Positions 23,018 through 48,340 of a DNA stretch of 64,000 bases are shown here, piece after piece. The notes under the pieces are model-generated. The model was not told the DNA's origin and did no database searches. It saw only the letters and a list, made by a program, of their open reading frames with translations. The first letter of the stretch is position 1. The number at the start of each line of letters is the position of its first letter. Source of the stretch: Spirochaetota bacterium (GTDB lineage: Bacteria > Spirochaetota > Spirochaetia > Treponematales > UBA12059). Made by a program: the position numbers and the translations under genes. The stretch lies in contig JAKLDN010000008.1 of assembly GCA_022703505.1 (NCBI GenBank), positions 158,422 to 222,421 on the forward strand, in the 5' to 3' direction.

Positions 23018-23064
23018 TAGATGACCCGCGGCCGATCCTCGTGACCGGCTTCGAGGAGGAAACC

Positions 23065-23883
23065 ATGGCAAAACGGCATCGAATCGATCCTTCGGACTAC
23101 AGGTCCATCGTCTTCCTGACCGGGGCGGGGATATCCGTGGCCTCGGGGATCCGCCCCTATCGGGGACCCGGGGGCCTGTGGAACGACGAGACCCTGGTCA
23201 AGTTCTCGGACCTCGAGACTTTCCGGAAGGATCCCCTAGCGGTCTGGCGCTTCATGAGCGAGACCCGGAGGATCTCCGCCGCCGCCCGGCCCAACCCCGC
23301 CCACCTCGCCCTGGCGGAGCTGGAGGTACGGCTGGAGGCGGAGCAGTCCCTGACGGTCATCACCCAGAACATCGACGGCCTCCACCGCCGGGCCGGGAGC
23401 TCCCACGTGATCGAGTTCCACGGCTCCGTGACCCGGACCCGGTGCTCCAACCACCGCTGCGACTTTCCGGCCTTCGAGGATCCCCTCCTGCACGCGGATT
23501 CCGTGCCCCTCTGCTCGGTCTGCGGCGCCCCCCTCCGGCCGGACGTGGTCTTCTTCGGGGAGATCATCCCCTCCGTCCGGGGCGCCGCGGCCATGGAGGC
23601 CCTGGCGGACTGCGACCTCTTCGTAGCCGTCGGCACCTCGGCCTCGGTATACCCCGCGACCCGCTTCGTGGAATGGGCCTGGAAGCGGAACGCCCGGACG
23701 GTGTTCGTGAACGTGGAGTCCTTCCGGGATCGGGATCCCGTGGCCGCCACCTGGTTCCGGGAGGAGTACATCGGGCCCGCGGAACGGATCCTGCCCCGGC
23801 TCTTCGGGGAGGGCCTGGACGAGGAGGAGCTGGACGGGTACCGGCCCGAGGTACTGGAGGATCTCCCGGAAGCCCGGGAGTAG
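23065..23883 (+). CDS. NAD-dependent protein deacylase, Sir2 family (CobB-like sirtuin)
   Basis: GAGISVASGIRPYRG, TQNIDGLHRRAG, EFHGS catalytic His. Zn-ribbon CSNHRC...CSVCG. GAGGAGG RBS. Confidence 0.85.
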   Translation: MAKRHRIDPSDYRSIVFLTGAGISVASGIRPYRGPGGLWNDETLVKFSDLETFRKDPLAVWRFMSETRRISAAARPNPAHLALAELEVRLEAEQSLTVITQNIDGLHRRAGSSHVIEFHGSVTRTRCSNHRCDFPAFEDPLLHADSVPLCSVCGAPLRPDVVFFGEIIPSVRGAAAMEALADCDLFVAVGTSASVYPATRFVEWAWKRNARTVFVNVESFRDRDPVAATWFREEYIGPAERILPRLFGEGLDEEELDGYRPEVLEDLPEARE

Positions 23884-23917
23884 CGGGAATTCTGGCACGA
23901 ACGCGAGGAGAAGAATC

Positions 23918-25699
23918 ATGGAGAAAACGGACTTGAGTTTCATGTTCCTGAAAAAGGGCCTGGCCGCCGGCCGGGACCTGGATCTCGTGCTCCGGGTGGA
24001 GACCCCGGCCCGTACCTCCGAGGGCGCACGCAAGCCCGCGGACCTGGCCCTGGTCCTGGACCGCTCCGGATCCATGCAGGGCCGCAAGATCATCTACGCC
24101 CGGCAGGGGGCGGCCGCCGCCGTGGGCCTCCTGGGGCCGGAAGACCAGGCCAGCCTGGTGCAGTTCGACGACCGGGTGGACCTCCTCCAGCCCCTGACCC
24201 CGGCGGGCCGGGCCGGTGCCCTCCAGGCCGCCATCGCGGGCATCGAGCCCCGGGGCAACACCGATCTCCACGGGGGCTGGGCCGCGGGAGCGGACAGCCT
24301 GGGGGACGGAGAACCCGGACGCGGCGCCCGGCGGGTCGTCCTGTTGACCGACGGCCTGGCCAACCACGGGGTGACCGACCCCGGGACCATCGCCGCGAAG
24401 GTGGCCGAGGCGGCCCGCCGGGGCATCGCCACCAGCGCCCTGGGCATCGGGGAGGACTTCAACGAGGAACTCCTGGAGGCCGTGGCCCGGGCCGGGGACG
24501 GCTCCTACACCTTCGTGGAATCCCCGGACCAGCTGCCCGCCTTCTTCGAAGCCGAACTCGCGGGATTCGCGAACCTGGCGGGCCGGGAAGTCCGGCTCGG
24601 CCTGGCCCCGGGACCGGGGATCCAGATCGTCTCGGTCCTGAACGACCTTCCGTCCTCGAACACGGGTTCCCTGGTCCTGCCCAACCTGGTCGCAGGGGGC
24701 CGGCAGGAGATTGGGCTTACCGTGCGGGCCCTGCCGGGCCTGACCGCCCGGCCCGGGGAGGAGACGGAGCTCCTGGCGGTCCGGCTGGAATGGACCGATC
24801 CGGAGACCGGGGAGCGCCGGGAAATGCGGCAGGCCGCCCGCGTCCGGGCGGTCGAGGATCGGGATTTCGAGGCCCTGCCCGCGGATCCCGCCGCAGTGGA
24901 GACCCTGGCCCTGCTCCGGACGGCCCGGGCCAAGCGGGAGGCTCTGAACGCCGTGGACCGGGGGGACGAAGCGGGAATCGCCCTCGCGATGGACCATATC
25001 CGGGCCATCCTGGCGGGAACGCCTCCCACCGAACGGACGGAGCGGGAGAAGATCTCCCTGGCCTCCCTGGAGGAGGACTTCCGGCTCCGGAAAATGGGCA
25101 AGTTCCGCAAGAACGTGCACTACGAGTCCTACGCCCGGGGCCACGCCATGGACGAGGCCCGGCTCTTCGGACATTATTCCCGGAAGCTCCTGTTCCTGGT
25201 CCGGGACAGGCTGGACCTGCACATCGGCAGCCTGGCCGGCTTCCCCTGCGACGCGATCGTGAACTCCCGGTCCGACGAGCCCGCCTCGGGGCTGGACGAG
25301 GCTCTCCGGGCCGCGGGGGGCCCCGCCTTCCGGGCCGCCTGCGAGGCGATCGGCAGGCTGGGCGCAGGTGCCGCGGCCGTCACGGGCGGCGGAGACCTGC
25401 CCGTCAAGTCGGTCATCCACGTGCGGGTCCCGGACTGGCGGGGTGGGAATGCCTCCGAGTTCGGAGCTCTATCGGAGTGCTACGCGGCCTGCCTCCTCGT
25501 CGCGAAGGAGCGGGGCTTCGGCCACGTGGCCTTCCCGGTCCTGGGCGCGGGGGGCAGAGGATTCCCCGTAGATGCCGCAGTTTCCCTTGGGCTGAGTGCC
25601 GCGGCCCAGTTCCTGTTCTCGAACCCGGCGCCGCGGCGGGTGACCTTCGTCTGTCCGGACGGTCCGGCAGCCGAACTGATCTGGGGCCAGCTTCCCTGA
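23918..25699 (+). CDS. vWA (MIDAS) + Macro domain fusion protein
   Basis: N-terminal DLALVLDRSGSM MIDAS motif. C-terminal macro fold: DAIVNSRSD, GGP, VIHV, FPVLGAGGRGFPVD. Confidence 0.8.
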   Translation: MEKTDLSFMFLKKGLAAGRDLDLVLRVETPARTSEGARKPADLALVLDRSGSMQGRKIIYARQGAAAAVGLLGPEDQASLVQFDDRVDLLQPLTPAGRAGALQAAIAGIEPRGNTDLHGGWAAGADSLGDGEPGRGARRVVLLTDGLANHGVTDPGTIAAKVAEAARRGIATSALGIGEDFNEELLEAVARAGDGSYTFVESPDQLPAFFEAELAGFANLAGREVRLGLAPGPGIQIVSVLNDLPSSNTGSLVLPNLVAGGRQEIGLTVRALPGLTARPGEETELLAVRLEWTDPETGERREMRQAARVRAVEDRDFEALPADPAAVETLALLRTARAKREALNAVDRGDEAGIALAMDHIRAILAGTPPTERTEREKISLASLEEDFRLRKMGKFRKNVHYESYARGHAMDEARLFGHYSRKLLFLVRDRLDLHIGSLAGFPCDAIVNSRSDEPASGLDEALRAAGGPAFRAACEAIGRLGAGAAAVTGGGDLPVKSVIHVRVPDWRGGNASEFGALSECYAACLLVAKERGFGHVAFPVLGAGGRGFPVDAAVSLGLSAAAQFLFSNPAPRRVTFVCPDGPAAELIWGQLP

Positions 25700-25744
25700 A
25701 AGCCGGGCCCGCCTATTAACCCGTCGAAGGAGGATCCGAGACCT

Positions 25745-26431
25745 ATGTACACTTACCCGTACCCCCACCCCGCGGTCACCGTGGACTGCGTCGTCTTCGG
25801 CCTGGACGAGGGGGAACTCAAGGTCCTCCTTATCCAGCGGGACCTGGACCCCTTCGCCGGAAAATGGGCCTTGCCCGGGGGCTTCATCCGCATGGACGAG
25901 GACCTGGAGGCTGCCGCCCGGCGGGAACTGGAGGAGGAGACGGGGGTCAAGAAGCTGTACATCGAGCAGCTCGGGGCCTTCGGGACCCCCGGCCGGGATC
26001 CCCGGGAGCGGGTGGTCACCGTGGCCTGGTGGGCGGTGGTCAACCTCTACGAGCACGAGGTGAAGGCCTCCACGGACGCCCGGAACGCCGCCTGGTTCCC
26101 CGTGGAGGAGCTTCCCGCCCTGGCCTTCGACCATCCGGTCATCCTGGACGCGGCGCTGGCCCGCGTGCGGGAAACCCTGCGCCGGGAACCCCTGGCCTTC
26201 GAGTTCCTGCCCCGGAAGTTCACCCTGACCCAGCTCCAGCGCTTCTACGAGACCGTCCTGGGCCGGCCGTTGGACAAGCGCAACTTCCGAAAGAAGGTCC
26301 TTTCCTACGGCCTGCTTGAGGAGCTCGAGGAGTACGAGGTGGACGTGGCCCACCGGGCCGCACAGCTCTATACCTTCCGCCGGGACCGCTACGAAACGTT
26401 CCGGGAGGAAGGCAGCCGGTTCCTGGTATAA
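25745..26431 (+). CDS. NrtR-like Nudix hydrolase-domain transcriptional regulator (Nudix + C-terminal winged helix)
   Basis: Nudix box GKWALPGGFIRMDEDLEAAARRELEEETG. C-terminal 90 aa is helix-rich and basic (KRNFRKKVLSYGLLEE). GAAGGAGG RBS. Confidence 0.7.
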   Translation: MYTYPYPHPAVTVDCVVFGLDEGELKVLLIQRDLDPFAGKWALPGGFIRMDEDLEAAARRELEEETGVKKLYIEQLGAFGTPGRDPRERVVTVAWWAVVNLYEHEVKASTDARNAAWFPVEELPALAFDHPVILDAALARVRETLRREPLAFEFLPRKFTLTQLQRFYETVLGRPLDKRNFRKKVLSYGLLEELEEYEVDVAHRAAQLYTFRRDRYETFREEGSRFLV

Positions 26432-26440
26432 GGAGGCCTC

Positions 26441-28504
26441 ATGCTGGGCGCGATTTCAGGGGACGTCCTGGGCTCGTTGTACGAGGCCTGGTCGATCAAG
26501 GACAAGAACTTCCGGCTCTTCCACGAGCTGGACCGGCCCACCGACGACTCCGTCCTCTCCCTGGCGGTGGCCAAGGCGATCCTGGACGCCGACGCCGAGG
26601 GCCGGTTGCCGGAAGCCGGGGACTACGAGCGGGAACTCCGGGCCTTCGGCCGCCGCTACCCCGACGCGGGCTACGGGGGCTCCTTCCGGGCCTGGGTGAA
26701 CGATCCCGTAGGCAAGCCCTACGAAAGCTTCGGGAACGGCTCGGCCATGCGGGCCTCCGCCGTGGGCTGGGCCTTCGGGGACGCGGAAACCGTCCTGACC
26801 CAGGCGGAACTCTCGGCCGCCCCGACCCACGGCCACCCGGAGGGCATCAAAGGAGCCCAGGCCGTCGCCCTGGCGGTCCTCCGGGCCCGGACGGGATCCT
26901 CGAAGGAGGAAATCCGCTCGGAGCTCTCCCGCCGCTTCGGCTACGACCTGGGCCGGACCGTGGACTCGATCCGGCCGGGCTACCCCTTCGAGGTCAGCTG
27001 CCAGGCCTCGGTCCCGGAGGCGATCGTCGCCTTCCTGGATTCCCGGGATTGGGAGGACGCGGTGCGGAACGCCGTCTCCCTGGGGGGCGACGCGGACACC
27101 CAGGCCTGCATCGCCGGGGCGATCGCCGAGGCCTTCTACGGCGGGGTTCCGCCCCGGGTCCTGGCCTGGGTCCTGCCCCGGCTGGAGGCCGGCCTCCTTT
27201 CGACCCTCTCGGACTTCGCGCGCCGCTTCCTGCCCGCCGACCGGGCCGCGGCCGTGGCCGCCGAGACCGCGGCCCGCGGTCTGCCCCGGGGAGTACCGGG
27301 GGCGGGCGGGAACCGGAAGGCCGGCGGAGCCGGCCCCGCCCCGGGCGACCGGAAGCGCCGCGGAGCGGCGCATGCCGGAGACCCGGGCAGGGACCCCGAC
27401 ACCCGGCACCCCCTGGCCCCCGCCCCGGGCTACCGGGTGGTCCTGGCCGGCTCGACCCGGGCCCGGATCGCCGACTACGCACGGCGCCTTTCCGCGGACC
27501 CAGGTCTCGCGGGGGCGCGGCTCCAGGCGGCCCTGGCGGACCTGGCTGTCCCCAGGTTTGACGCGGCCTGGCTCCTCGTCTCCCTCCTGGCCACCAAGAA
27601 GCCCCGGATCTTCGCGGAGAGCGAGGTGGCCGGGGACGGCTCGGACTGGACCCGGGAGGAGCTCGGGCTTTTGGGGGACATCGGCTTCGCGGTGCCCGTC
27701 ACGGTCTTCGACGACGGCCGCCACTCCGCCCCCCGGGTACACTCGACGCCCTTCGGGGCCACCCTGCTCTTCGCCCCCGGGGCCCTGTTGGCAGGGAGGC
27801 GGGGATCCCCCGCGGACGGGCACGTAGCCCCCGGCGGCCACATCGACCCGGTCCGGTACGGGGCCCTCTACGAGGGGCGGCTCCTCCCCCTCCTCCAGTA
27901 CGCGAGCGCCGTCTCCTCGGCGGCGGGCCGGAAGGCCCTGGTCACCGTGCCGGGCCTGGGCTGCGGCCAGTTCGCCGGACCTTTCCGGGGCCGCCTGGGA
28001 CCGTACCTGAGGGACGCCCTGGCGGGGATCCTGAAACGGAACGCGAAGATCCTGCCGGGCATCCGGGCCGTCCGCCTCGATCCCTACGACGAATGCGGGA
28101 ACGAGGACCGGCGCATCGGACGGATCGCCTTCCGGGTCCGCCCCCTGGCGGTGAACGAACGGAAGGGCACGGGGCTCGGCCTGCCCCAGCTCCGCCCGCC
28201 CCGGGACTACCAGGAGCCCGGGGACGACTTCTCGGACTGCGACCTCTTCAGCGTCGTCGCCTGGGACCCCGTCTCCTGGCCCGGGAACGACTACTGGGCC
28301 GGGGCCCGGGCCACCGACGACGGGGTCAAGGCCGCGGCCACGGACGCGATGTTCGCCCTTTCGGGCTTCCGGGGCCGCTACGACCCGGAGACCTGCGGAT
28401 ATCTGCCGCCCCCGGGGGTCCGCGCCTGGGAGGACCTGGTCCTGGAGCAGCGCCTGGTCCTGCGGGCCGTGGACAACGTGACGGTCGTCGGATCTCCGGG
28501 ATGA
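26441..28504 (+). CDS. ADP-ribosylglycohydrolase (DraG/ARH family) fused to a 400-aa uncharacterized C-terminal domain
   Basis: N-terminal ARH motifs (DDSVLSLA, GNGSAMRASAVGW, GGDADTQACIAGAIAEAFYG). The C-terminal half has a TVPGLGCGQFAG glycine-rich loop and no family I can name. AAGGAGG RBS. Confidence 0.75.
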   Translation: MLGAISGDVLGSLYEAWSIKDKNFRLFHELDRPTDDSVLSLAVAKAILDADAEGRLPEAGDYERELRAFGRRYPDAGYGGSFRAWVNDPVGKPYESFGNGSAMRASAVGWAFGDAETVLTQAELSAAPTHGHPEGIKGAQAVALAVLRARTGSSKEEIRSELSRRFGYDLGRTVDSIRPGYPFEVSCQASVPEAIVAFLDSRDWEDAVRNAVSLGGDADTQACIAGAIAEAFYGGVPPRVLAWVLPRLEAGLLSTLSDFARRFLPADRAAAVAAETAARGLPRGVPGAGGNRKAGGAGPAPGDRKRRGAAHAGDPGRDPDTRHPLAPAPGYRVVLAGSTRARIADYARRLSADPGLAGARLQAALADLAVPRFDAAWLLVSLLATKKPRIFAESEVAGDGSDWTREELGLLGDIGFAVPVTVFDDGRHSAPRVHSTPFGATLLFAPGALLAGRRGSPADGHVAPGGHIDPVRYGALYEGRLLPLLQYASAVSSAAGRKALVTVPGLGCGQFAGPFRGRLGPYLRDALAGILKRNAKILPGIRAVRLDPYDECGNEDRRIGRIAFRVRPLAVNERKGTGLGLPQLRPPRDYQEPGDDFSDCDLFSVVAWDPVSWPGNDYWAGARATDDGVKAAATDAMFALSGFRGRYDPETCGYLPPPGVRAWEDLVLEQRLVLRAVDNVTVVGSPG

Positions 28505-28655: not shown

Positions 28656-28813
28656 AAGTTTGCGCGCGCGTCGGGAGGACGAAGCCGACCGCCTCATGCT
28701 TCGTGAGCCCGCACCCTCCCTCTGGCGCCCGGCCCGGCCATGCCCGATACTTGAACCGAGGCGGCCGCCGCCCGGACACTCGCTCCCTTCGGCGCGGCCG
28801 GACTGGAGGTTCC

Positions 28814-30112
28814 ATGGATCCCCTGGCGATATCCCAGGCCCTCTCGGCCCTGGTCTTCGGGGCCCTGTCCGCGGGGAGTCTCCTCCTGGGCGCCTGGACC
28901 GGAATATTCCTGAAGCCGCCGCCCCGGGTCTCCGCCGCGGTCATGGCCTTCGGCGCGGGGGCCCTCTTCGCGGCCCTGTCCCTGGAACTGATCGGCGAGG
29001 CGGTGGAGCGCCTCCACGGGAACTTCTGGCCCATCGGACTGGGCTGCGTGGCCGGGGGCCTGCTCTTCGTCACCCTGGACCACCTGGTGAACGGCGCGGG
29101 AGGCTTCCTCCGCAAGCGCTCCACCCTGTCCCGGCGCCTCCGAGCGGACCGGAGGAAGGACGTCCGGCTCCTCCTGGAGAGTCTGGCCAAGGTCCCCCTC
29201 TTCGCCAGCCTGCCCCCCGAGGAGGTCCGCAGCCTGGCGGACCAGGTGACCCGGGTGCGCTGCGACGCCGGCACCCCGGTCATCCGCACCGGGGAGCCCG
29301 GGGCCGAGCTCTACCTGGTCGAGTCCGGCCGCCTGGAGGTATCCCGGGGGGGCGCAAGCCTGGCGGTCCTCGGGCCCGGGGACATGGTCGGGGAGATGGC
29401 CCTGCTCACCGGGGAGACCCGCACCGCGGACGTGACGACCCTGGAAGCGGCGGTCCTGCTCACCCTGCGCAAGGAAGCCTTCGACCGACTCCTGGCCGCG
29501 AACCCCCGGCTCCGGGAGGCGGTGGAGAGACTGTCCGGCCAGCGGCGGGAGGCCCTGGAGAAGGCGGCCGCCACGGTGGACCCTGCGGCCTGGGCCCGGA
29601 AGGCCGGGACCGGGGACTGGAAGCCCAGCTCCCTGGAGCTGGACGAGGCCTTCGCCCAGGCTGGGGGAAAGAAGAAGGGCGGGGCCCCCATGGGTATCTG
29701 GCTGGGCATCCTCCTGGACGGCGTCCCCGAGTCCGCGGTCATCGGTGCCAGCATGATCGGGGCCGAGAAGGCCAGCCTGGCCCTGATCCTGGGACTCTTC
29801 ATCGCCAACTACCCCGAGGCCCTGTCCAGCGCCGTGGGGATGCGGAAGATGGGCATGTCGGTGTGGAAGATCACCGCCCTCTGGGGCTCCATCGTGGCCC
29901 TGACCGCGGTGGGCGCGGGGATCGGCAACCTGGCCTTCCGCTCGGCCCCCGGGGAGCTGGTGGCCCTCTTCGAGAGCCTGGCCGCGGGCTCCATGCTGGC
30001 CATGCTGGCGGAGACCATGATGCCCGAGGCCTACGAGCACGGCGGTTCCGTCACCGGTATGGCCACCATCCTGGGCTTCGTGTCCGCGGTCTTCCTGCGG
30101 GTGGCGGGGTGA
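28814..30112 (+). CDS. ZIP-family metal transporter with an inserted cyclic-nucleotide-binding (CAP_ED) domain
   Basis: TM helices and GIxLHxxxEG-like ZIP blocks at both ends. Central cNMP fold (FASLPPEEV...GEPGAELYLVESG...GEMALL..RTA). GGAGG RBS. Confidence 0.75.
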   Translation: MDPLAISQALSALVFGALSAGSLLLGAWTGIFLKPPPRVSAAVMAFGAGALFAALSLELIGEAVERLHGNFWPIGLGCVAGGLLFVTLDHLVNGAGGFLRKRSTLSRRLRADRRKDVRLLLESLAKVPLFASLPPEEVRSLADQVTRVRCDAGTPVIRTGEPGAELYLVESGRLEVSRGGASLAVLGPGDMVGEMALLTGETRTADVTTLEAAVLLTLRKEAFDRLLAANPRLREAVERLSGQRREALEKAAATVDPAAWARKAGTGDWKPSSLELDEAFAQAGGKKKGGAPMGIWLGILLDGVPESAVIGASMIGAEKASLALILGLFIANYPEALSSAVGMRKMGMSVWKITALWGSIVALTAVGAGIGNLAFRSAPGELVALFESLAAGSMLAMLAETMMPEAYEHGGSVTGMATILGFVSAVFLRVAG

Positions 30113-30205
30113 TTCGGAATTCCGAGCCCCCTCGATAATCAGGATGGATTCCCGGAACCGTGATAGACTGAAGGATAGAGAATCATTACAAAGGAGCGTC
30201 CCTTC

Positions 30206-31186
30206 ATGAAGATCCACGTCATCGGCTGCGGCAACGCCTTTTCCAGCGAGTCCTTCAACCAGTCCTTCGTGATCGAGGAAGCCGGGCGGCGCATGCTCAT
30301 CGACTGCGGCATGCAGACCCCCCAGGCCCTGGTCACGGCCCGGTACAAGCCCCAGGACATCCACGACATCTACGTGAGCCACCTCCACGCGGACCACGTC
30401 GGGGGCCTGGAGTACTTCGCTTTCGCCCGGTACGACTGGGCCAAGCATCCCCGGTCCTGGTCGGAGGGGACCTACGCCCCCCGGCTGATCGGCAACGTCC
30501 AGCTCCTCCGGGACCTCTGGGACAAGACCCTCCGGGGCGGCCTGGAATCCATGGAGGGTTTCGTCTCGAACCTGGAGACCTTCTTCGAGCCGGTCCCCGT
30601 CGAGCCGAACAAGCGCTTCGAGTGGCAGGGCTGGACCGTGGACCTGATCCAGCAGATCCACATCATGTCGGGCTCGGTGATCATGCCCTCCTTCGGCATC
30701 CTCTTCAGCAGGACGGGCCGCAAGTCCGTGTACTTCGTGACGGACAGCCAGCACTGCTCGCCCCGGCAGATCGAGGAGTACTACAAGCGCGCGGACCTGA
30801 TCTTCCAGGACTGCGAGTGCACGGGCATGGACCTTCGCTTCCCCGAGGGCGCCAAGACCTACGTCCAGGACGGGGTCCCGAAGGCCTGGCCCGAGGACGA
30901 GATGGAGGCCCTGGACCTCCTGGCCCGGGGGATCGAGCCCGTGAAATGGTCCCGGTACAAGTTCTCCTCGGGGGTCCACGCCAACTACGCCCAGCTGGCG
31001 GGCTACGAGAGCGCCAACTCCATCAAGCTGGATCCCCAGGTCAAGGCCAAGATGTGGCTCTCCCACTACCAGGACTACGTCCTCATCGGCAAGGACCACT
31101 TCGGCAACGAGGTCGACTGGGCCGCGGAGGCGAAGAGAGACGGGTTCGCGGGCTTCGTCAAGCTGGGCCAGCGATTCGAGGTCTGA
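30206..31186 (+). CDS. MBL-fold metallo-hydrolase
   Basis: HLHADHVGG (HxHxDH) motif. AAGGAG RBS. Confidence 0.75.
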   Translation: MKIHVIGCGNAFSSESFNQSFVIEEAGRRMLIDCGMQTPQALVTARYKPQDIHDIYVSHLHADHVGGLEYFAFARYDWAKHPRSWSEGTYAPRLIGNVQLLRDLWDKTLRGGLESMEGFVSNLETFFEPVPVEPNKRFEWQGWTVDLIQQIHIMSGSVIMPSFGILFSRTGRKSVYFVTDSQHCSPRQIEEYYKRADLIFQDCECTGMDLRFPEGAKTYVQDGVPKAWPEDEMEALDLLARGIEPVKWSRYKFSSGVHANYAQLAGYESANSIKLDPQVKAKMWLSHYQDYVLIGKDHFGNEVDWAAEAKRDGFAGFVKLGQRFEV

Positions 31187-31226
31187 GGTACGGAGGGTCC
31201 GGAATGGAACCGTCCGGGAGGTCCCC

Positions 31227-32774
31227 GTGAAGCGGCGTCCGCGGGACTCCGAGGAGCTCGAGGAACTCGAGGCTGTCGAGGAAGACGAGTCAGTCGAAGA
31301 GCTCGAGTCGGTCGAGGACGCGGAGCCGGTCCCCCAGGACTCGGAGGCGGTACCGCTGTACTCCGAACTTCCGGACTTCGCGTCCCCCGAGGCTTCCCTG
31401 GGCCCTCCGGGCGTGCCGGCCGACGAATCGATCCGGCGGGGATTCGAGGCGGAGATGCGGATCCTCCAGGCGGAACTGGAGAGGATCCGGCAGGCCAAGA
31501 GCGACGCGGCACGGCATGAAACACCGACCAGCGGCAGGAAGCACACAAAGGAGAAACCCATGGAAGAACTCAGGGACCCGGGCTCGAGCCCACAGACCTA
31601 CGGCACCAAAGAATACATCAAGCGGCGCCGCAAGCTTTCGGGCCTTTTCTTCGAGACCGCCCTGCCCAACGAGTACCTGGTGGAGGTGGGGCGCAAGGAC
31701 GTCCGACCCCGCCTGGGGGGCCGGCGATTCCGGCTCTTCCGTAAGTTCCTGCGCATCCCCGCCTCGGTCCAGACCCTGGTCTTCACCACGGACAACGCCA
31801 ACGTGGACTACCAGGGGATCGGTGTGGACGGCTACGCCTCCTGGCGGGTGGACCCGGAGCATCCCGAGGTCGCGGTCCGCACCCTGGACTTCTTCGACGA
31901 GGACGACCCCATGGCTCGCACCAACGCCGAGCTCCGGACGATCTGCGTGGAGGCGGTCCGCCACGTGATCTCCAACATGAGCATCGACGACGCCCTCAAG
32001 AAGAAGGACGAGATCGCGGAGAACCTCTCCCGCCAGCTCAAGGGGATCGAGCGGAAGTGGGGCATCCTCTTCGACCAGGTGGGGATCGAGAAGGTCCGCA
32101 TCATGTCGGACCGCCTGTTCGAGCAGCTCCAGGCCCAGTTCCGGGACGGGCTCCGGTTGGAGGTGGAGCGCAAGCGGATCGCCACGGACCGCCAGATCGC
32201 GGCGGAGCAGAACGCCATGCGGGAGGGCACGGGGCTGGAGACCATCCTGACCAACCAGAAACTCGAACTCTCCGAGGTGGAGCAGAAGGCCCGGGTCCAG
32301 GAGGCCCAGGCGGCGGAGGCCCACCGCCTGGCCCTCCAGAAGATCGAGATAGACCGCGCGACCTTCCGGGAAGAGCAGTCCTTCCGCACCGAGAAGGAGA
32401 AGGAGGGCCATGCCCTGGCACTCCTGGAACGGACACTGAAGACGGAACTGGCCGCCGCGGAACTCCGGCTCCTCAAGGAAGAGTCCTCGGTGGAGGACCT
32501 GCGGGCGAAGATCGGGGAGCGCCAGCTGGAGCTCCAGCGCCTCCAGCGGGAGGTTTCCCAGGTCTTCTCCGACCAGGCCCTGGCCAGCGAATTCATCCAG
32601 CGCCTGCCCTCCCTGTTCGCGGCCCTCCAGATCGACAACTACACCGTCCTGGATTCGGGCTCGGGCCAGGTCACGCCGGTCACCCGGGTGCTGACGGAGG
32701 TGGCCGCGGCCCTGAAGGGCCTGGACCTCAAGGGACTCCTGGGCGGGGGAAAGGACGCGGCCCCCGGGGCCTGA
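31227..32774 (+). CDS. SPFH/band-7 (flotillin-like) protein with acidic N-terminal repeats and long coiled coil
   Basis: GTG start after GGGAGG. EELEELEAVEEDESVEELESVED N-terminus. SPFH core. Extended EA-rich coiled coil. Confidence 0.65.
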   Translation: MKRRPRDSEELEELEAVEEDESVEELESVEDAEPVPQDSEAVPLYSELPDFASPEASLGPPGVPADESIRRGFEAEMRILQAELERIRQAKSDAARHETPTSGRKHTKEKPMEELRDPGSSPQTYGTKEYIKRRRKLSGLFFETALPNEYLVEVGRKDVRPRLGGRRFRLFRKFLRIPASVQTLVFTTDNANVDYQGIGVDGYASWRVDPEHPEVAVRTLDFFDEDDPMARTNAELRTICVEAVRHVISNMSIDDALKKKDEIAENLSRQLKGIERKWGILFDQVGIEKVRIMSDRLFEQLQAQFRDGLRLEVERKRIATDRQIAAEQNAMREGTGLETILTNQKLELSEVEQKARVQEAQAAEAHRLALQKIEIDRATFREEQSFRTEKEKEGHALALLERTLKTELAAAELRLLKEESSVEDLRAKIGERQLELQRLQREVSQVFSDQALASEFIQRLPSLFAALQIDNYTVLDSGSGQVTPVTRVLTEVAAALKGLDLKGLLGGGKDAAPGA

Positions 32775-32839: not shown

Positions 32840-33286
32840 TCAAAGGGCGAGTTCGAAGACCTCCTCCCCGTCGTCCAGGATACCCGTGTCCCGGAAGCCC
32901 GCCTTGAGGTAGACCTTGATGGCGTGGGCGTTCTCCGGGTGGGTGGACAGCCGCACGCGGGCGGCCGCGGGGTAGTCCCGGCGGATCTCCGCCACCAGGA
33001 GCCGGACCGCGGCGCTCCCGATCCCCCGGCCGTGCAGGTCCGGCAGGACGTACATCCGAACGATCCAGGGGATGCCCCGGTCCGCCGGATCGTCCGCGTC
33101 GTCGTCGACGCCGCTCATGCAGAATCCCGCGAGCTTGCCGTCCGCGTAGATCGCCCGGGGCCGAAGGGACGGGTAGAGCCAGGCCTGAGCCAAGCTCCGG
33201 ATATTCGCGGCCACGTGGTCCTGCTTGGGCATGGCCACGATCTCCTCGAAATTGTCCTTGTCCACGGGGCGCAGTTCCACGTTCAT
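32840..33286 (-). CDS. GNAT-family N-acetyltransferase
   Basis: LHGRGIGSA acetyl-CoA-binding motif. Last gene of the overlapping six-gene operon. Confidence 0.8.
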   Translation of the reverse strand: MNVELRPVDKDNFEEIVAMPKQDHVAANIRSLAQAWLYPSLRPRAIYADGKLAGFCMSGVDDDADDPADRGIPWIVRMYVLPDLHGRGIGSAAVRLLVAEIRRDYPAAARVRLSTHPENAHAIKVYLKAGFRDTGILDDGEEVFELAL

Positions 33287-34194
33287 GGTGCCTCCTTGTT
33301 CGATTCCGGCAACGGCTCCGCAGCCCGGGCCCAGGCCGCGGGCACGCCGCCGGGGGCCGAGAGGGCCACGATGCCCCCGACGATGGCGCAGGTGGTGTCC
33401 CGGTCGATGCCGCAGGCGGCGTCCCGGAGGGCCGCGGCGTAGTCGGAGGGCCGACGGGCGGCGACCCAGAGGCAGAAGGGGACGGTGTCGAAGGCCGCCA
33501 CGGCCATGCCGGAGCCGAGGCTCCAGGCGGCCCTCTCGGCCGGCACGTCCCCCAGGACCCGGGCCTTCCCGATCCCCTCCCGCACCCGGCCGGACCCGAG
33601 CACGTCGAGCACGGCGGTAAAGAATGCGTCCCGGTCGAAGGACCCCGTCCCCTCCCGGCCGGACGCGGCCGCTAAGGCGGCGGCCGCGGCTACGGCGGCC
33701 GCCCCGTCGATGCCTTCGGGATGGGCATGGGTAGGCTCCGCGCTTGTCGCGCCCTCCGAGGCGGCCCGGGCGGGGTCCCCCGCGTACCAGGCCCCGATCG
33801 GCGCGGCCCGCATGGCTCCCCCGTTGCCCCAGGAACCGGTTCCCCCGAAGGCCGCCCGGGAAACCGCGCGCCAGTCCTTTCCCCGGGCTATCTCGGACAG
33901 GATCGCGTGGGCCCCTCCCCAGTAGCCCCGGGCGGGGTCCTCGGCGTAGCGGAGGGCGAAACGCCGGGCCAGGTCGTCCGGGTCGATCCGTCCCCGGGCC
34001 TCCAGGGTCTCCACGACGGAGACCGCCATGGCCGTGTCGTCGGTCCAGCGCAGGGACCCCGGCGGAACCTGTCCGGCCTCGATCCGGGCCGCGACCTCCA
34101 CGGGGTCCCGGGAGAAACAGGCTTCCCCGTACGCATCCCCCGCGGAGAGCCCCAGCAGGGACAGGCGGGCGAGGATTCGGCGGCCGTCGTTCAC
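33283..34194 (-). CDS. ADP-ribosylglycohydrolase-family protein (second copy in window)
   Basis: DDTAMAVSV, GNGGAMRAAPIG, GIDRDTTCAIVGGIVA ARH-family blocks. Confidence 0.8.
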   Translation of the reverse strand: MNDGRRILARLSLLGLSAGDAYGEACFSRDPVEVAARIEAGQVPPGSLRWTDDTAMAVSVVETLEARGRIDPDDLARRFALRYAEDPARGYWGGAHAILSEIARGKDWRAVSRAAFGGTGSWGNGGAMRAAPIGAWYAGDPARAASEGATSAEPTHAHPEGIDGAAAVAAAAALAAASGREGTGSFDRDAFFTAVLDVLGSGRVREGIGKARVLGDVPAERAAWSLGSGMAVAAFDTVPFCLWVAARRPSDYAAALRDAACGIDRDTTCAIVGGIVALSAPGGVPAAWARAAEPLPESNKEAP

Positions 34195-34790
34195 GATTCC
34201 TCCTCCACGGGCTCCGCGTCCTGGACCACCGGCAGTTCCTCCATCAGGGACGCCAGCTCCCGGGCGAAGTCCGCGATCCTCGAGTCCTGCATCACTTTGG
34301 CCTCGGCCTCCAGGCGGGAGCCCAGGATCCGGTCGAAGCAGCGCACGAAGCGGAGGTTGGGCAGGGCCTGGGGCCGGACCTCCCGAAGCCTCCGGACCGC
34401 CTCGGCCTCGCTGCCGGTCTCCAGGTAGAGGAGCGCCAGGGCCGCCGCGGTGGACCGGGACACCCCCGCCCAGCAGTGCACCACGTAGCCGGACGCCTCC
34501 CGGCGGGTGCGGCGCCAGAAGGCCACGACCCTGCGGGCGTCCCGGACCTCGGGGATCCGGGCCAGGAAGGGATGCCGGAGATGGGACCGCTCGGTGGCGT
34601 CCTGGAAGGACAGGCGCAGGATGCTGCGGAAGCGCGGTCGGAACTCGGGGCGCACCCGGGTGCCCGGCTCCCGCTCCGCCCAGGGGACGCGGGGATTCCC
34701 GATGGACACCAGGTGGTCCGGCAGGGGGACGCCGACCCTCACCAGGTCCGCCAGCTCCTCCTCCCCGAAGACGAGAATCGGCAAGGTCAT
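34191..34790 (-). CDS. Dual-specificity (Cys-based) protein phosphatase
   Basis: VVHCWAGVSRST CX5R P-loop. Internal Met start with a 4-nt overlap to the upstream gene. The longer ORF prefix is Pro/Gly junk. Confidence 0.7.
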   Translation of the reverse strand: MTLPILVFGEEELADLVRVGVPLPDHLVSIGNPRVPWAEREPGTRVRPEFRPRFRSILRLSFQDATERSHLRHPFLARIPEVRDARRVVAFWRRTRREASGYVVHCWAGVSRSTAAALALLYLETGSEAEAVRRLREVRPQALPNLRFVRCFDRILGSRLEAEAKVMQDSRIADFARELASLMEELPVVQDAEPVEEES

Positions 34791-35556
34791 GCCCACCTCG
34801 GGTTCGGAACCGGGACGGCTGCGGGGATCCGCCGGACCTTTCGGGTTTCGACCTCGATGTCCCAGAAGACCCGGGCGTGGGGATACGCCCCGTTCACGAA
34901 GCGCCCCCGCCGGCCGGGCCGGTTGTGGATGTGGCCGAAGAGATGTAGCCGGGGCTCCCGGTCCCGGACCAGGTCCCGGAGGGCGGGGATGCCGTGGATC
35001 AGCTCCGCCCGGCCGTCCAGGATCCCCGCGGGCGGGGAATGGGTGACCAGGATCGATTTCCGGTCCACCCGGGGCGCCAGGGCCCGGACCTCCCGGTCCA
35101 GGTCCGCCTCGCTCCGGTGGTCGACGGTCCACCGGTACCCGACGAAGTTCCAGGTCCCGAACTCGATCCTCCGTCCGTGCAGGTTCACGATCCCTCCTCC
35201 ATCCGCCCAGGGGGTGTCGTCGTGGTTCCCGGGCACCAGGAAGACGGGCTTTCCGGCCCCGCCCAGGACCTCCCGGAACCGGCCTTCCAGGATGGACAGC
35301 CCCCTCAGGTTAATCTCGTTGAAGCGCCGGCCTACGGTTTGCCAGGGCGACGGGTCCTCGGGATCCGCCAGGTCCTCCAGAAGGTCGTCCGGGTCCGCCC
35401 CCAGTTCCCGGACCAGGAACTCGTCGGGCAGGCGGATGTCGTCCAGGAGGTCCCCCGCCAGGACCCCCGCGTCCCAGGGACCCTCCGCCAATGTCCGGGC
35501 GAAGAGACGGTACGCCGGCATGAGGGCGTGGAGATCCGAGGAGAAGAGGAGCCTCA
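34787..35556 (-). CDS. Calcineurin-like metallophosphoesterase
   Basis: SDLH, GDLLD, GNHD, HSPP, GHIH metallophosphoesterase motifs. GGAGGGGG RBS. Confidence 0.75.
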
Positions 35557-36723
35557 TTCCGCCCCCTCCAGTTCCTCGAGGCCCTCGTCCAGGACCGCGC
35601 GGAAATGGGCGGCCAGGGCGGCCTTCCGGCGCTCCAGGAGTTCCTCGTCCGAGGCCGAGGGGAGGAAGGGCGCGGGCGCCCCGGACCGGGGCGGGGCGAG
35701 CATGAGGTCCTCGACCAGCCGGGAGAGGTCCGCGGGGTCGAACCGGGCCTCCAGGTACCGGTGGTTTCCGGAGGGATCCGCCGTCCAGCGCCCGGAGCCT
35801 TCCCTGTCCACCTCGAGCCGGCCCGGCGCGGAGAGCCGGAAATACCGGGTCCCCGTCACGGCGGCCAGGACAGCGGCCTGGTCGTAGCAGGCCCAGTCCA
35901 GGCCCACCGTGTGGAGGCGGTAGGCGGTGCGCACGGGGTTCCCCCGGGGCGCCTCGCGGCAGAACCGGGCGCCCGCCTGGAGGGAGCCCCCGAGTTCGCC
36001 GTCGCAGATCACGACGGGGGTCGGCCATCCGGCTAGGACGCGCCGGGCGGCCCCGGGATCCTGCCGGAGATTGTACTCGATCCCCTCGGGGATCCGGCCG
36101 CACATGAGGACGAGCTTCCGCACCGAACGGCGGACCAGGTCCGGCCCGGACAGGGGGCTGGTTCCGTCGGGGCCCGAGTCGAGGAGGGCCGCCAGGTTGA
36201 GCATCGGGCCGATGCCCACGAGTACCGCGTCCGCCCGATCGCGGCCCGCCAGGAGCCGCCGGATAAGGCCGACCGCCTCCGGGTCCGCTTCGTGCGCTGT
36301 TCCGGCCTGCGCGGGCGCGGCGGCCGCCTCAGGATTGTTACCGGGCACGGCTTCAGCCTGCGCGGACACGGCGGCCGGTTCCGGACCGCCCGGGGCCGCG
36401 ACGCCCTCCCCGGGTCCGTAGGCCTCCGCCAGGAAGCGGATGTACGAGAGGTCCGCGTGCTCGTCCAGGAAGCCCGGCCGGCCGAAGGCGCCGACGGGTA
36501 TGTCCGGTCGGCCGTACCAGCGGTTGACCGCCCGGATTGCGGGGACGCCCCAGCGTGCGGAGGTGCAGTAGGTCATCCCAAGGATCTCCGCCAGGCCTCG
36601 ATCCGCAAGGGCGTGGAGCACCGCCAGGGCCCCCGCGTCGTCCACGTCCTCGTTCAAGTCCGTGTCCAGGATCAGGGGTAGCGGCCGTCGCCGTCTTCGC
36701 GGGAGGGGAGGAAGCTCAGCCAA
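35554..36723 (-). CDS. Inosine-uridine-preferring nucleoside hydrolase-family protein
   Basis: LILDTDLNEDVDDAGAL (DxDxxxDD) N-terminal motif. Confidence 0.8.
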   Translation of the reverse strand: MAELPPLPRRRRRPLPLILDTDLNEDVDDAGALAVLHALADRGLAEILGMTYCTSARWGVPAIRAVNRWYGRPDIPVGAFGRPGFLDEHADLSYIRFLAEAYGPGEGVAAPGGPEPAAVSAQAEAVPGNNPEAAAAPAQAGTAHEADPEAVGLIRRLLAGRDRADAVLVGIGPMLNLAALLDSGPDGTSPLSGPDLVRRSVRKLVLMCGRIPEGIEYNLRQDPGAARRVLAGWPTPVVICDGELGGSLQAGARFCREAPRGNPVRTAYRLHTVGLDWACYDQAAVLAAVTGTRYFRLSAPGRLEVDREGSGRWTADPSGNHRYLEARFDPADLSRLVEDLMLAPPRSGAPAPFLPSASDEELLERRKAALAAHFRAVLDEGLEELEGAE

Positions 36724-37735
36724 GGAACACCTCCCCTTCGTCGGTCACCTTCAGGAGCGTCTTGCAGGACTTGCAGCGCCCCCGCATGGGCCGGGCCGAC
36801 CGGGTTCGGGCCCCGCAGATGGGGCACTTGAAGATCTTCGGGAACTCAGGCTCCTCCAGTCCGTCCGAACTCCTTTTCAGGAGCGCCATGGCTTCCGCCT
36901 CGGTATCGACGATCTCGAAGTACTGGTGGAATAATCCCAGAAGCAGAAATACTTCATCGATCTTCGGGGGGATTCCGAAGAGGACCAGGCGGCCGTCCCG
37001 GAGCTTGACCGTCTTCAGGATACCGGTCAGGTGCCCGATTCCCGACCCTGGCCATTGAAGCCCGGAGAAGTCCAGGGCCAGACGGATGAACTCGGCCTCC
37101 ACGCGCCGCAGGACCAGGCCGTAAAACCAAGTCCCGGCCTGCCGGTCCAGGTAGCCCGAGTACCGAATGACCAGGCCGCCGGGGAGGTCGGACAGAGGTT
37201 CGAAGACGGCCTTGTTACCGTTGCCGTCCTCCTCTTCCCGGGGAAGGTCCGGCGCCGGAGCGCCGGGCGAGCGGTCCGCGGCCGCGGCCGCTAGGATCGC
37301 GGCGGCTTCCGTAGGATCCCGGGCTGGAGGGAAAAGCGTCTCGAGCCTGGAAATCCGGAGGCTTTCCCGGATGCAGGGCGAAGGCAGGACGACCACAGTT
37401 CCGCCCCGGGGATGGACCGCCTTCAGAGCAGCCGTAAACAGATGGATCGCGTGATCGCCGCAGGACTCGACCCTCCAGGTATCGAACACGACACCGTGCG
37501 TGTCCAGATCCTTCATATACCGCAGAAGCAGGTCAACGGCCCAACCATCATTCCCTCGATCAAACTTGCCGTCGACCTCCACGAGCAGGGTGCCCTCCGG
37601 CGTACCGGGCACTCGGTCCTTCAAGGGTTGGGCTGTCAGGCCGAGCTTGCCGGTTGGGTCCGTCCGTCGTTCCGGGGATGGAGTCATGAAGGGGCTCCAG
37701 GATTTTCCATCGTTTTCCTTGGGTTCCATATTCAC
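36716..37735 (-). CDS. STAS-domain (anti-sigma-antagonist-like) protein with C-terminal zinc ribbon
   Basis: Two STAS-like segments, then CPICG...CKSC. Start could be 37735 or the later Met at 37687. Confidence 0.55.
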   Translation of the reverse strand: MNMEPKENDGKSWSPFMTPSPERRTDPTGKLGLTAQPLKDRVPGTPEGTLLVEVDGKFDRGNDGWAVDLLLRYMKDLDTHGVVFDTWRVESCGDHAIHLFTAALKAVHPRGGTVVVLPSPCIRESLRISRLETLFPPARDPTEAAAILAAAAADRSPGAPAPDLPREEEDGNGNKAVFEPLSDLPGGLVIRYSGYLDRQAGTWFYGLVLRRVEAEFIRLALDFSGLQWPGSGIGHLTGILKTVKLRDGRLVLFGIPPKIDEVFLLLGLFHQYFEIVDTEAEAMALLKRSSDGLEEPEFPKIFKCPICGARTRSARPMRGRCKSCKTLLKVTDEGEVFLG

Positions 37736-37785
37736 AGGGTGCTGACAAAGGCGATGGCGCCTTTGTCAGCACCCTGCCAGGAAGA

Positions 37786-45566: not shown

Positions 45567-46823
45567 TCAAGCTCTTTTAAAAGCTCCCTGCATCCGCTCA
45601 ATTTCAGGCCTACGGATGCCCAGAGCCTTCGCCCGCACCTGCCACCTCGAGACCACCCCGCGTATCGCCTCCATGATCGAGAGTGCCTCGGGCTTTGAGA
45701 GCCTGAAGTACTGCGCGACCGATAGGGCCAAGTCGAAATCCAACGAATTGTCATGCTCGTCGATGGCGAGGGAGAGGCCCGCCGAATCAGGCGAGGGATT
45801 GATGTCGTAGGCGGGAGAAAGCCACCAGCCCTTCGCATCGAGGAGGAAGCCATGATTCCGAAGATGGTCGTCGGTGTTGGAAACGGCGATGGAAAACACG
45901 ATGCGTTTCCAGAGCTCCCGCAGATCGGCGTCGGGCCGGGATCCGGAGCGCATGATGAACTCCGCGAGCTCGAGGTAGCTTGCGCCGGCCTCGGCGTCAT
46001 CGCCGTCCTTGCGGCCGAGCAAGGTCATGGCGGAGGCGAAATGGATACGTCCCTCTCCTTGGCGATCGAAGCGCTTCGTCATGAAGGTGGAGCCTCGCTT
46101 CGAGAAGGAGTCTAGCCTGCATTCGCTCATCTCGATGCCAGCTGCGCAGGCGAGGTCGGCGACGAGCATCTCCCAAGCGCCTGAGTCGCGTTCATCATCC
46201 TTGCCCGGGAACTTGGCTATCCAGAGTTCGCCCTTCTCGTCCACTACGCTAGCCTTGGGCCTAGCGCCTCCGAGCGAGGAGCCGGGCGCAATCAACATGG
46301 CGAGCCAGGGGTCGAGCTTGTCGTCATCCTCTTCATGTTCCGCGAGGAAACTCGCATACTCGAGATCGCGTAGCGTTGACCACGGCGGGGCTGCCATAGC
46401 CGTATCCAAGCTCTGATAGGCTTCGTTGCCTGGTATCTTAAACCGCAAGGCGCCCAAACGATTCTTATCATGAACGCCGAGGAGGTACTCCGCTTCTCCG
46501 AGCCTTCGCGGCGTCCGCCCTTCCTTCCTTGCCAAGATGGCCTCGCGCCGCCTCATGAGGACGCGGCCCCAACGATCGGGAGAGGAATCCAGGAACAGGC
46601 CGAAATTTGGCTTACCCACCCCGGCATACTGGGGTCCCTTATAGAATCGCAGATCAGGGTCGAGCGTTCGGTTGTCGTCGCGGCGAAGCCATGCCGCGTC
46701 GTACTCGAAGGAGAAGACTTCCTTGCCGCGCGGCGCTTGGACGGACAACGTGCCGAGATGGGCAACGGATCCAAGGCCGAGCCAATCGGCATACACTTCG
46801 ATAGTGCGCCCGGCGTCGCTCAT
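45567..46823 (-). CDS. hipA: HipA-family Ser/Thr kinase toxin
   Basis: 418 aa. SNTDDHLRNHGF catalytic loop. Confidence 0.85.
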   Translation of the reverse strand: MSDAGRTIEVYADWLGLGSVAHLGTLSVQAPRGKEVFSFEYDAAWLRRDDNRTLDPDLRFYKGPQYAGVGKPNFGLFLDSSPDRWGRVLMRRREAILARKEGRTPRRLGEAEYLLGVHDKNRLGALRFKIPGNEAYQSLDTAMAAPPWSTLRDLEYASFLAEHEEDDDKLDPWLAMLIAPGSSLGGARPKASVVDEKGELWIAKFPGKDDERDSGAWEMLVADLACAAGIEMSECRLDSFSKRGSTFMTKRFDRQGEGRIHFASAMTLLGRKDGDDAEAGASYLELAEFIMRSGSRPDADLRELWKRIVFSIAVSNTDDHLRNHGFLLDAKGWWLSPAYDINPSPDSAGLSLAIDEHDNSLDFDLALSVAQYFRLSKPEALSIMEAIRGVVSRWQVRAKALGIRRPEIERMQGAFKRA

Positions 46824-47149
46824 GATTCATCCTTCTTCGGCGACTTTCGGGCACGCCGTCGGCTAGGAAGCTTGGCGTCCTGGAGAGCGCGTCCGAGCTC
46901 GTCATCGAGCGCGACAGCCTCGAGGTCCTTCTCGAGTCCCAGCACGAACAAGACCTGTATCCAAGTAGCCATCGATACCGAGCCGGAGCCATTCTCGAGG
47001 GCGCTCAGGGTCTGTCGGCTGATGCCCGCCCGTTCGGCAACCATCTCGGCGCTGAGATCGCGTCGGAGCCGCGCCAGTCGGATATTCTCGCCGAGCGTTT
47101 CGAGGCTACGTTGGACACTGGGCAATAGGACCGGGAGTTTCTTAGGCAT
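46820..47149 (-). CDS. hipB: HipB-like XRE-family HTH antitoxin
   Basis: LSAEMVAERAGISRQTLSALENG HTH. 4-nt overlap with hipA. Confidence 0.75.
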   Translation of the reverse strand: MPKKLPVLLPSVQRSLETLGENIRLARLRRDLSAEMVAERAGISRQTLSALENGSGSVSMATWIQVLFVLGLEKDLEAVALDDELGRALQDAKLPSRRRARKSPKKDES

Positions 47150-47353
47150 AACGTATAATATAATAGGCATAAAAGGTATATCTGTCAAATTATTACGACG
47201 TAAAACTGAATAACACAACTCACATGCAAAGGTGGTTCTTACAAAATGTCGAGAATCGGACTACTTTGATGTTCCTGACACGGCCACTTCATTGACCATA
47301 CCCTAGAAGGTATCTCCATGGTTTATACCTTGATGGGTAAATGGTAAGAAAGG

Positions 47354-47779: not shown

Positions 47780-47780
47780 A

Positions 47781-48338: not shown

Positions 48339-48340
48339 GG

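Follow-up and report, generated by a model that had tools for sequence, protein, structure and literature searches.

The window analysed here, a 64-kb stretch of contig JAKLDN010000008.1 from an uncultured Spirochaetota bacterium, was found to contain six co-directional genes tightly packed on the minus strand, from position 37687 down to 32840. The fixed unit of this operon is a trio of genes for an IUNH-like N-ribohydrolase of the nucleoside hydrolase (NH) fold, a calcineurin-like metallophosphoesterase (MPE) and a Cys-based phosphatase of the dual-specificity phosphatase fold (DSP-like). The gene for a STAS-STAS-Zn-ribbon protein at the head of the operon is clade-specific, and the genes for an ADP-ribosylglycohydrolase (ARH) and a GNAT acetyltransferase at its end come and go. 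The recurrent company of the trio was a NAD-consuming, ADP-ribose-sensing gene set of NrtR, ARH, SIR2, deacetylase and Macro genes. The likeliest function of the operon, held at a rough probability of 45%, is the dismantling of ADP-ribose-type nucleotides. The operon does not represent a novel type of system: comparative genomics had already predicted such gene clusters, of which this is a lineage-specific variant.

Organisation of the operon

The first gene (36716..37687, minus strand, as are the five that follow) was found to encode the STAS-STAS-Zn-ribbon protein, with 323 aa from the ATG at 37687, the same start as in public gene calls; the longest open reading frame begins with a GTG at 37735 and gives a form of 339 aa. 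The second gene, encoding the IUNH-like N-ribohydrolase (35554..36723, 389 aa), starts with a TTG and overlaps the STAS stop by 8 nt, followed by the genes for the MPE (34787..35557, 256 aa) and the DSP-like phosphatase (34191..34790, 199 aa, P-loop HCWAGVSRS), each with an ATGA overlap. The fifth gene, encoding an ARH3-like ARH (33283..34194, 303 aa), was joined by a GTGA overlap, followed by a small GNAT acetyltransferase (32840..33286, 148 aa) with an ATGA overlap. Public gene calls on the same contig (NCBI metagenome-assembled genome GCA_035912075.1 and an ENA assembly, labelled Spirochaetia/Spirochaetales) agreed with this six-gene model. Pfam supported all six domain calls, DSPc below its gathering score with the fold supported by a structural model, and thereby the order of STAS-Zn-ribbon, IUNH, metallophosphoesterase, Cys phosphatase, ARH and GNAT that an initial annotation of the sequence had given. 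That annotation had also counted six junctions with overlaps of 4-8 nt; the sizes were recovered (8, 4, 4, 4 and 4 nt along the operon) and the junctions number five.

The TTG of the IUNH-like gene was the sole start codon 5′ of the catalytic DTD motif and is a forced choice, because the next start codon would truncate the catalytic Asp cluster. A purine-rich GGAG/GAGG-type motif preceded four of the five downstream starts (IUNH, MPE, ARH and GNAT), and the DSP-like start was preceded by GAGG only, about 10 nt upstream. From the overlaps, co-transcription is taken as established and translational coupling as probable. Gene overlaps of 4 nt are ordinary in high-GC operons, so the coupling indicates an operon and is not unusual by itself.

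A promoter and terminator scan of the operon returned nothing informative. The 5′ leader was found to contain a hairpin (37735..37776, minus strand) with a perfect 19-bp stem and a 4-nt loop, placed just 3′ of a TATACT hexamer and 48 nt ahead of the ATG. Its RNA fold z-score was -5.9, one copy was present in the window, and it was not found upstream of the STAS gene in four relatives. A known RNA element was rejected, as no Rfam family matched the hairpin and it was not conserved in relatives; it may serve as an operator, an attenuator or an RNA stabiliser.

Conservation of the trio across loci

Further loci were collected by a metagenome scan seeded with the DSP-like alignment, and no other distinct locus with the full six-gene order was found among those recovered. 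The closest relatives formed one narrow clade of uncultured Spirochaetota, in which the STAS-IUNH-MPE-DSP order was constant (L005, L094, L095 and L098; enzymes 64-97% identical) and ARH or GNAT was lost or displaced. The order was kept in L005, where only the two ends of the ARH gene survive and a PIN gene takes the place of the rest. The facultative GNAT gene was absent in L094, which contained an extra exonuclease-like gene, and in L098 it was set apart from the operon by an insertion of other genes. The ARH3-like gene was missing from L095, where the operon directly abuts an NrtR-ARH pair with the other ARH type on the opposite strand.

The trio itself was found in L180 at 54, 55 and 53% identity (IUNH, MPE and DSP, respectively), without STAS or ARH. 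In L103, an NrtR gene was divergent from a GDSL-like-MPE-DSP-deacetylase-ARH-MavL series in which MPE and DSP overlap by 4 nt. In L090, the IUNH orthologue (50%) abuts a SIR2 gene 61% identical to that of the window, and the stop and start codons share a base. The DSP-like gene was near NrtR-ARH-SIR2-deacetylase genes in L089 and L009, near a deacetylase gene in L085 and coupled to a SIR2 gene in L105. Neighbourhood conservation, which the initial annotation had named as the check on its proposal, was therefore seen: orthologues of these genes co-localise elsewhere (L005, L094, L095, L098, L180, L103 and L090).

A distant DSP-like branch, mainly of Alphaproteobacteria (146 loci, L011-L084 and L107-L178), usually contained an HD(YfbR-like)-DSP-regulator arrangement, the regulator with an NrtR winged-helix domain. 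The HD gene was present in 95 and the regulator in 75 of the 146 loci, ARH in none, and the three genes were found to overlap by 4 nt in L034 (9333-11544).

Toxin-antitoxin genes of the PIN or PIN/PSK type occurred as insertions at the operon's 3′ end in L005 (10597-11537), L094 (15138-15775) and L098 (5770-6413). An exonuclease of about 200 aa, DEDDh/Rv2179c-like, recurred between DSP and ARH in L094 (13500-14126), before SIR2-IUNH in L090 (6597-7175) and beside a second DSP-like gene in L008 (10179-10763), and was absent from the window. The 192-aa gene before SIR2-IUNH in L090, considered as a DSP-like gene, was rejected as such and is this exonuclease.

Enzymes of the operon

The active-site motifs were found to be intact in the ARH, IUNH-like, MPE and DSP-like proteins. 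The IUNH-like enzyme matched Pfam IU_nuc_hydro with 47.4 bits (cut-off 34.2) and contained a DTDxxxDVDD Asp cluster and an E-Y-N motif that were invariant or nearly so (at least 90%) in 38 homologues. The DTDLNEDVDD of the window protein aligned with DCDPGHDD of RihA/YbeK with a two-residue insertion, followed by the alignment of EYN with EFN. The single sequence had no PDB match at E of 0.1 or below, and the family profile matched RihA/YbeK at 3e-10 and XopQ at only 0.0095. On these values a XopQ-like identity was rejected, and XopQ is retained as a precedent only. NCBIfam RihC scored 21 bits against a cut-off of 382, and the enzyme fitted none of the characterised specificity classes tested (RihA/B/C, IU-NH, IAG-NH and XopQ). 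The wider family was found in Armatimonadota, Planctomycetota and Verrucomicrobiota, with frequent GH43 fusions.

The MPE matched Pfam Metallophos with 43.4 bits (cut-off 21.5), without any NCBIfam match. Its metal motifs contained D8, H10, G35, D36, G110, N111, D113, H173 and H211 as invariant residues among 41 homologues, with H209 nearly so. The AlphaFold2 (AF2) model had a pLDDT of 94.8, and its nearest structures in Foldseek were the uncharacterised aq_1956 and TT1561, followed by Mre11. The sole sequence-level PDB relative of the family profile was MPPED2 (1.5e-9), which we take to be a class-III cyclic-nucleotide-phosphodiesterase-type enzyme. The parallel with the Mn-dependent ADP-ribose diphosphatase ADPRibase-Mn, which the initial annotation had drawn for this protein, was not sustained; ADPRibase-Mn was absent from the single-sequence and profile PDB searches and from the top 50 Foldseek hits, and this identity was rejected.

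The DSP-like protein scored 27.7 bits (2.7e-6) with Pfam DSPc, below the gathering score of 33.5. Its HCWAGVSRS P-loop was intact, and H105, C106, G109, R112, S113 and D64 were invariant in 19 homologues. Asp64, located 42 residues before the Cys, is a candidate general acid. The AF2 model (pLDDT 92) gave MKP5/DUSP10, DUSP12 and Tk-PTP as best Foldseek matches (probability 1.00, TM 0.48-0.64), so that the fold is nearest to the MAP-kinase phosphatases and an archaeal PTP.

The ARH matched Pfam ADP_ribosyl_GH (PF03747) with 156.7 bits (1.3e-45, cut-off 26.2). Its closest PDB relatives were ARH3 chains at about 4e-23, with DraG at only 1e-5 to 4e-7. The metal-site motifs LRWTDDTAMA and GIDRDTT aligned with LYYTDDTAMA and GGDTDTI of ARH3, respectively. 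The GNAT protein matched Pfam Acetyltransf_1 with 54.3 bits (2e-14, cut-off 20.7), and no specific NCBIfam equivalog reached its cut-off.

The STAS protein and the Cys phosphatase

The STAS protein was found to contain a Pfam STAS domain (43.4 bits, 3.2e-11) at residues 186-282 of the 339-aa form and a STAS_2 domain at 79-131, followed by the presence of a C-terminal CPxC...CxxC Zn-ribbon that was conserved among relatives. In the alignment with SpoIIAA and RsbV, the Ser that is phosphorylated in these two proteins (the column of SpoIIAA Ser58) was kept in the C-terminal STAS domain of every family member. The N-terminal STAS-like domain of the window protein was degenerate, with an Asp at this column. 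Two distinct forms of that domain occurred among relatives (P0176-P0182), one of which keeps Ser-Ser at the phospho-site. The protein was 60-65% identical among relatives whose operon partner enzymes were 84-97% identical, and the divergence was concentrated in the N-terminal domain.

A natural STAS-DSP fusion was found (P0014). L008 contained a kinase-like HATPase_c protein followed by three tandem STAS-Zn-ribbon genes and a DSP-like gene, and L006 contained a PAS-GAF-SpoIIE-HATPase_c_2 protein and a STAS gene near a DSP-like gene. The kinases upstream in L008 and L102 showed HisKA_2-type features. A regulatory link between the STAS protein and the phosphatase is supported by the conserved phospho-Ser, the fusion and the kinase-STAS-DSP arrangement of L008, and the STAS protein, a clade-specific regulatory add-on, probably pairs with the Cys phosphatase.

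A partner-switching module consists of a STAS antagonist, a HATPase_c Ser kinase/anti-sigma factor and a PP2C phosphatase. Neither a Ser kinase/anti-sigma factor of the HATPase_c type nor a PP2C was found among the scanned genes of the window, and the operon is not a canonical module of this kind because both are lacking. A STAS protein with a phosphorylatable Ser and a phosphatase gene in the same operon are common to the RsbV/SpoIIAA switch and the window, whereas the switch uses PP2C and the window phosphatase has the Cys-based DSP fold; the window STAS protein also has an extra STAS-like domain and a Zn-ribbon compared with the RsbV/SpoIIAA type. The pair proposed in the initial annotation as a partner switch was thus upheld in the phospho-Ser, the fusion and the kinase-linked operon of L008, and weakened by the lack of a Ser kinase in the window and by a DSP-like family that mostly occurs without STAS. 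The recurrent link between STAS and a Cys phosphatase, which includes a natural fusion, would hint that a phosphatase other than PP2C can serve in STAS switches; a literature search gave no example of such a switch, and we know of no earlier hint.

Linked cluster and adjoining genes

A second cluster was found on the plus strand, 4-10 kb from the operon and opposite to it. It is headed by a CobB-like SIR2 gene (23041-23883), followed by the presence of a vWA+Macro gene (23918-25699), an NrtR gene with an intact Nudix box (25745-26431) and a gene for a DraG-like ARH fused to a MavL domain (ARH-MavL, 26441-28504). The initial annotation had spoken of a second ARH cluster within 10 kb, and this cluster (23041-28504) bears it out; its ARH is of the DraG-like type, unlike the ARH3-like enzyme of the operon. 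The Macro domain resembled an O-acetyl-ADP-ribose deacetylase (3e-24). The NrtR and vWA-Macro genes were located 6-9 kb from the operon in this converging cluster, not inside the operon. Orthologues of the linked-cluster genes adjoined DSP-like, MPE or IUNH orthologues in L005, L008, L009, L089, L090, L095, L103 and L105, with a SIR2-IUNH coupling in L090 and a SIR2-DSP coupling in L105. The core of the operon belongs to a wider, reshuffled set for NAD-consuming protein modification, with NrtR, two kinds of ARH, a CobB-like SIR2, a Zn-deacetylase, Macro and GNAT.

The window NrtR was found to keep the complete Nudix box G-x5-E-x7-REUxEExGU, and it may therefore hydrolyse ADP-ribose besides sensing it. 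A 21-bp palindrome, ATAGTGTAGTATATACACTAT, at 22997-23017 overlaps a TTGACG-17-TATATA promoter-like site just before SIR2 and is a candidate NrtR operator. A shared NrtR operator was rejected: the regions close to NrtR in L103, L089, L009 and L090 and the sequence upstream of STAS had no inverted repeat in common.

The space between the cluster and the operon (28703..32774, plus strand) contained genes for a cyclic-nucleotide (cNMP)-binding/ZIP-like membrane protein, an Apyc1-like metallo-β-lactamase-fold (MBL) hydrolase and a Band_7/SPFH protein, which converge on the operon. The Apyc1-like hydrolase, in this case encoded by a host genome, belongs to the Pfam Anti-Pycsar family. Some or all of the three genes were beside the operon in L005, L094 and L098. 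In L087, a Band_7-MBL pair adjoined a DSP-like gene that is followed by a class III cyclase gene; the Metallophos gene of L087 was rejected as an orthologue of the operon MPE.

Proposed function

Sirtuins and the turnover of ADP-ribosylation yield ADP-ribose, a reactive by-product. In the route that we infer, every substrate and the order of the steps being predicted, the ARH3-like enzyme and the neighbouring Macro and ARH-MavL proteins would free ADP-ribose from sirtuin-made O-acetyl-ADP-ribose or from modified proteins. The MPE would then cut the pyrophosphate or a phosphodiester, the Cys phosphatase would take off the exposed terminal phosphate, and the NH-fold enzyme would cleave the remaining ribosidic bond, with the STAS-Zn-ribbon protein as the presumed regulatory partner of the phosphatase. 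Removal of protein ADP-ribosyl marks and degradation of the released ADP-ribose had been proposed for the operon in the initial annotation; the general idea matches an independent prediction (PMC9503650), and several of its specifics are weaker, as the MPE shows no relationship to ADPRibase-Mn, ARH is not a fixed member and GNAT is facultative.

Sirtuin-linked turnover of ADP-ribose consists of CobB with Macro/YmdB-type or ARH3-type O-acetyl-ADP-ribose deacetylases and of Nudix or ADPRibase-Mn ADP-ribose pyrophosphatases. The window resembles it in the presence of a CobB-like SIR2, a Macro domain, an ARH3-like hydrolase and an ADP-ribose-sensing NrtR within 15 kb, and differs in its candidate pyrophosphatase, an MPE for which no relationship to ADPRibase-Mn was detected. 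Its further phosphatase and ribosidase would carry the breakdown past AMP and ribose-5-phosphate, and to our knowledge no pathway that does so has been described. If the dismantling of ADP-ribose-type nucleotides is the function, the IUNH-MPE-DSP trio would be the means by which some bacteria degrade ADP-ribose further than these two products, and it would give the predicted ARG-NrtR-phosphatase systems described below a concrete enzyme set. Practical consequences are limited at present, the organisms being uncultured and the function predicted from sequence.

Several observations weigh against this function. The MPE has no detectable ADPRibase-Mn relationship, its only sequence relative being MPPED2 and its nearest folds uncharacterised, and the DSP-like model is closest to protein phosphatases. 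Several DSP-like genes occur in purely signalling contexts, such as a subgroup in L102, L179 and the P0019 contig in which a sensor histidine kinase and a DUF1707/LiaF-like protein precede the DSP-like gene. IUNH homologues at about 40% identity were found without a NAD context, often fused to GH43. The ARH is dispensable in the clade, with the PIN gene in its place in L005, no ARH in L180 and no ARH3-like gene in L095. The sole NrtR-like palindrome (22997-23017) was in single copy in the window, and none was found upstream of the six-gene operon. All close relatives are metagenome-assembled Spirochaetota, and the shared gene order may therefore partly reflect shared ancestry.

Comparison with predicted systems and alternative functions

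The clusters of which the operon is a variant are the 'ARG-centric' systems, a prediction from comparative genomics (Iyer, Burroughs, Anantharaman & Aravind 2022, Viruses 14:1977, section 3.8, PMC9503650). They were described to contain an ADP-ribosylglycohydrolase (ARG), an NrtR or WYL regulator and a Cys phosphatase of the rhodanese-phosphatase superfamily, sometimes followed by the presence of calcineurin-like, HD or HAD phosphatases, vWA and Macro (PMC9503650). In that proposal, ADP-ribose put on host proteins by phage ADP-ribosyltransferases is stripped, the phosphatases process ADP-ribose and NrtR senses it (PMC9503650). The window resembles these systems in the coupling of ARG/ARH to a metal-independent Cys phosphatase and a calcineurin-like phosphatase, which was also seen in L103, in the presence of an NrtR-type Nudix regulator, vWA and Macro in the neighbourhood, and in accessory genes that vary between close relatives. 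The likeness of the two Cys phosphatases is stated here at the level of Cys phosphatases in general. The window adds a STAS protein and an NH-fold enzyme, neither of which is in the published description (PMC9503650), and its constant core is IUNH-MPE-DSP, whereas that of the ARG-centric systems is ARG. Spirochaetota were not among the lineages given for them (PMC9503650).

With such a likeness, the operon and its neighbouring cluster could use the same chemistry as a counter-defence against phage ADP-ribosylation, which is the best placed of the alternatives and still a somewhat unlikely one. The parts list matches in ARG, NrtR, Cys phosphatase, calcineurin-like phosphatase, vWA and Macro, the gene content varies between close relatives with toxin-antitoxin modules inserted, and the STAS protein diverges much faster than its operon partners. 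When the six proteins and four neighbours were scanned with PADLOC, the only matches were a partial one of the MPE to the candidate PDC-S10 (6.5e-16), which is also in favour of this alternative, and generic cNMP-domain matches; beyond the MPE match none of the six genes fits a PADLOC defence model, and the region was rejected as a known anti-phage system. The operon contains no nuclease or other effector. The definition of ARG-centric systems demands that no sirtuin or ADP-ribosyltransferase be linked, whereas the window contains the CobB-like SIR2 (23041-23883) and GNAT, and its relatives contain deacetylases; these linked genes point to endogenous acylation and ADP-ribose turnover, which weighs against counter-defence.

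A rather less likely alternative is a signalling module, in which the STAS protein and the Cys phosphatase would form a partner-switch-like pair and the MPE would be a cNMP phosphodiesterase acting with the adjacent cNMP-binding, Apyc1-like and Band_7 genes. It would fit the STAS-DSP fusion, the arrangement of L008, where the kinase, the three STAS genes and the DSP-like gene are completed by a cyclase-like gene, the DSP-cyclase pair with Band_7-MBL in L087, the PAS-GAF-SpoIIE-HATPase_c_2 and STAS genes near DSP in L006, MPPED2 as the sole PDB sequence relative of the MPE profile, and the cNMP trio found in part or whole beside the operon in L005, L094 and L098. However, IUNH-MPE-DSP (L180) and MPE-DSP (L103) occur without STAS or cNMP genes, no cyclase or Ser kinase was found in or next to the operon, and the NH-fold enzyme and ARH have no obvious role in cNMP turnover.

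The six genes could also be co-transcribed and functionally unrelated, housekeeping hydrolases and a regulator having accreted in this lineage. In favour of this, the full order was found in one narrow clade only, and ARH, GNAT and STAS are each dispensable somewhere; but the trio or pairs from it persist through rearrangements down to 37-55% identity, in differing flanks that again contain NAD/ADP-ribose genes, and this alternative is considered unlikely. An equally improbable proposal is that the DSP-fold Cys phosphatase, in place of a PP2C, is cognate to the STAS-Zn-ribbon antagonist in a switch that would gate a hitherto undescribed stepwise erasure of ADP-ribose marks or ADP-ribose-derived signals by a phosphodiesterase, a phosphatase acting on the phosphoribosyl remnant and an NH-fold ribosidase.

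The most doubtful alternative is a stepwise erasure of protein-linked ADP-ribose, in which the MPE would leave phosphoribosyl-protein, the DSP-like enzyme would remove the phosphate, the NH-fold enzyme would cleave N-linked ribose and the ARH3-like enzyme would handle O-linked marks: it would account for a protein-phosphatase-type fold and an N-ribohydrolase locked to a phosphodiesterase and ARH, but it is pure conjecture, we know of no such enzyme, and the IUNH profile is much closer to ordinary RihA-type hydrolases than to XopQ. The precedent that an NH-fold enzyme can act on a glycosidic bond derived from ADP-ribose is the effector XopQ (XopQ/HopQ1), which cleaves 2′cADPR to ADPR (bioRxiv 10.64898/2026.06.15.732069). 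The IUNH-like enzyme of the window shares with it the NH fold and, as predicted, a substrate derived from ADP-ribose, and differs in the marginal profile relation (E 0.0095) and in the context, where no TIR or Thoeris genes were found nearby.

Other features of the window

A PIN-domain gene and an overlapping upstream gene of 85 aa (22199-22881), a probable toxin-antitoxin pair, were located directly before the SIR2 cluster. The sole cyclase in the window was an 838-aa protein (6049-8565) with an N-terminal class III adenylate/guanylate cyclase domain followed by a two-transmembrane (2TM) domain. In the region from 46000 to 64000, the GC content was found to fall from 0.65-0.73 to 0.49-0.60. 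This region contained HipA, REase-ARP, RecT, ResIII helicase and N6/N4 DNA methylase genes, and it resembles a mobile or defence island gained by horizontal transfer.

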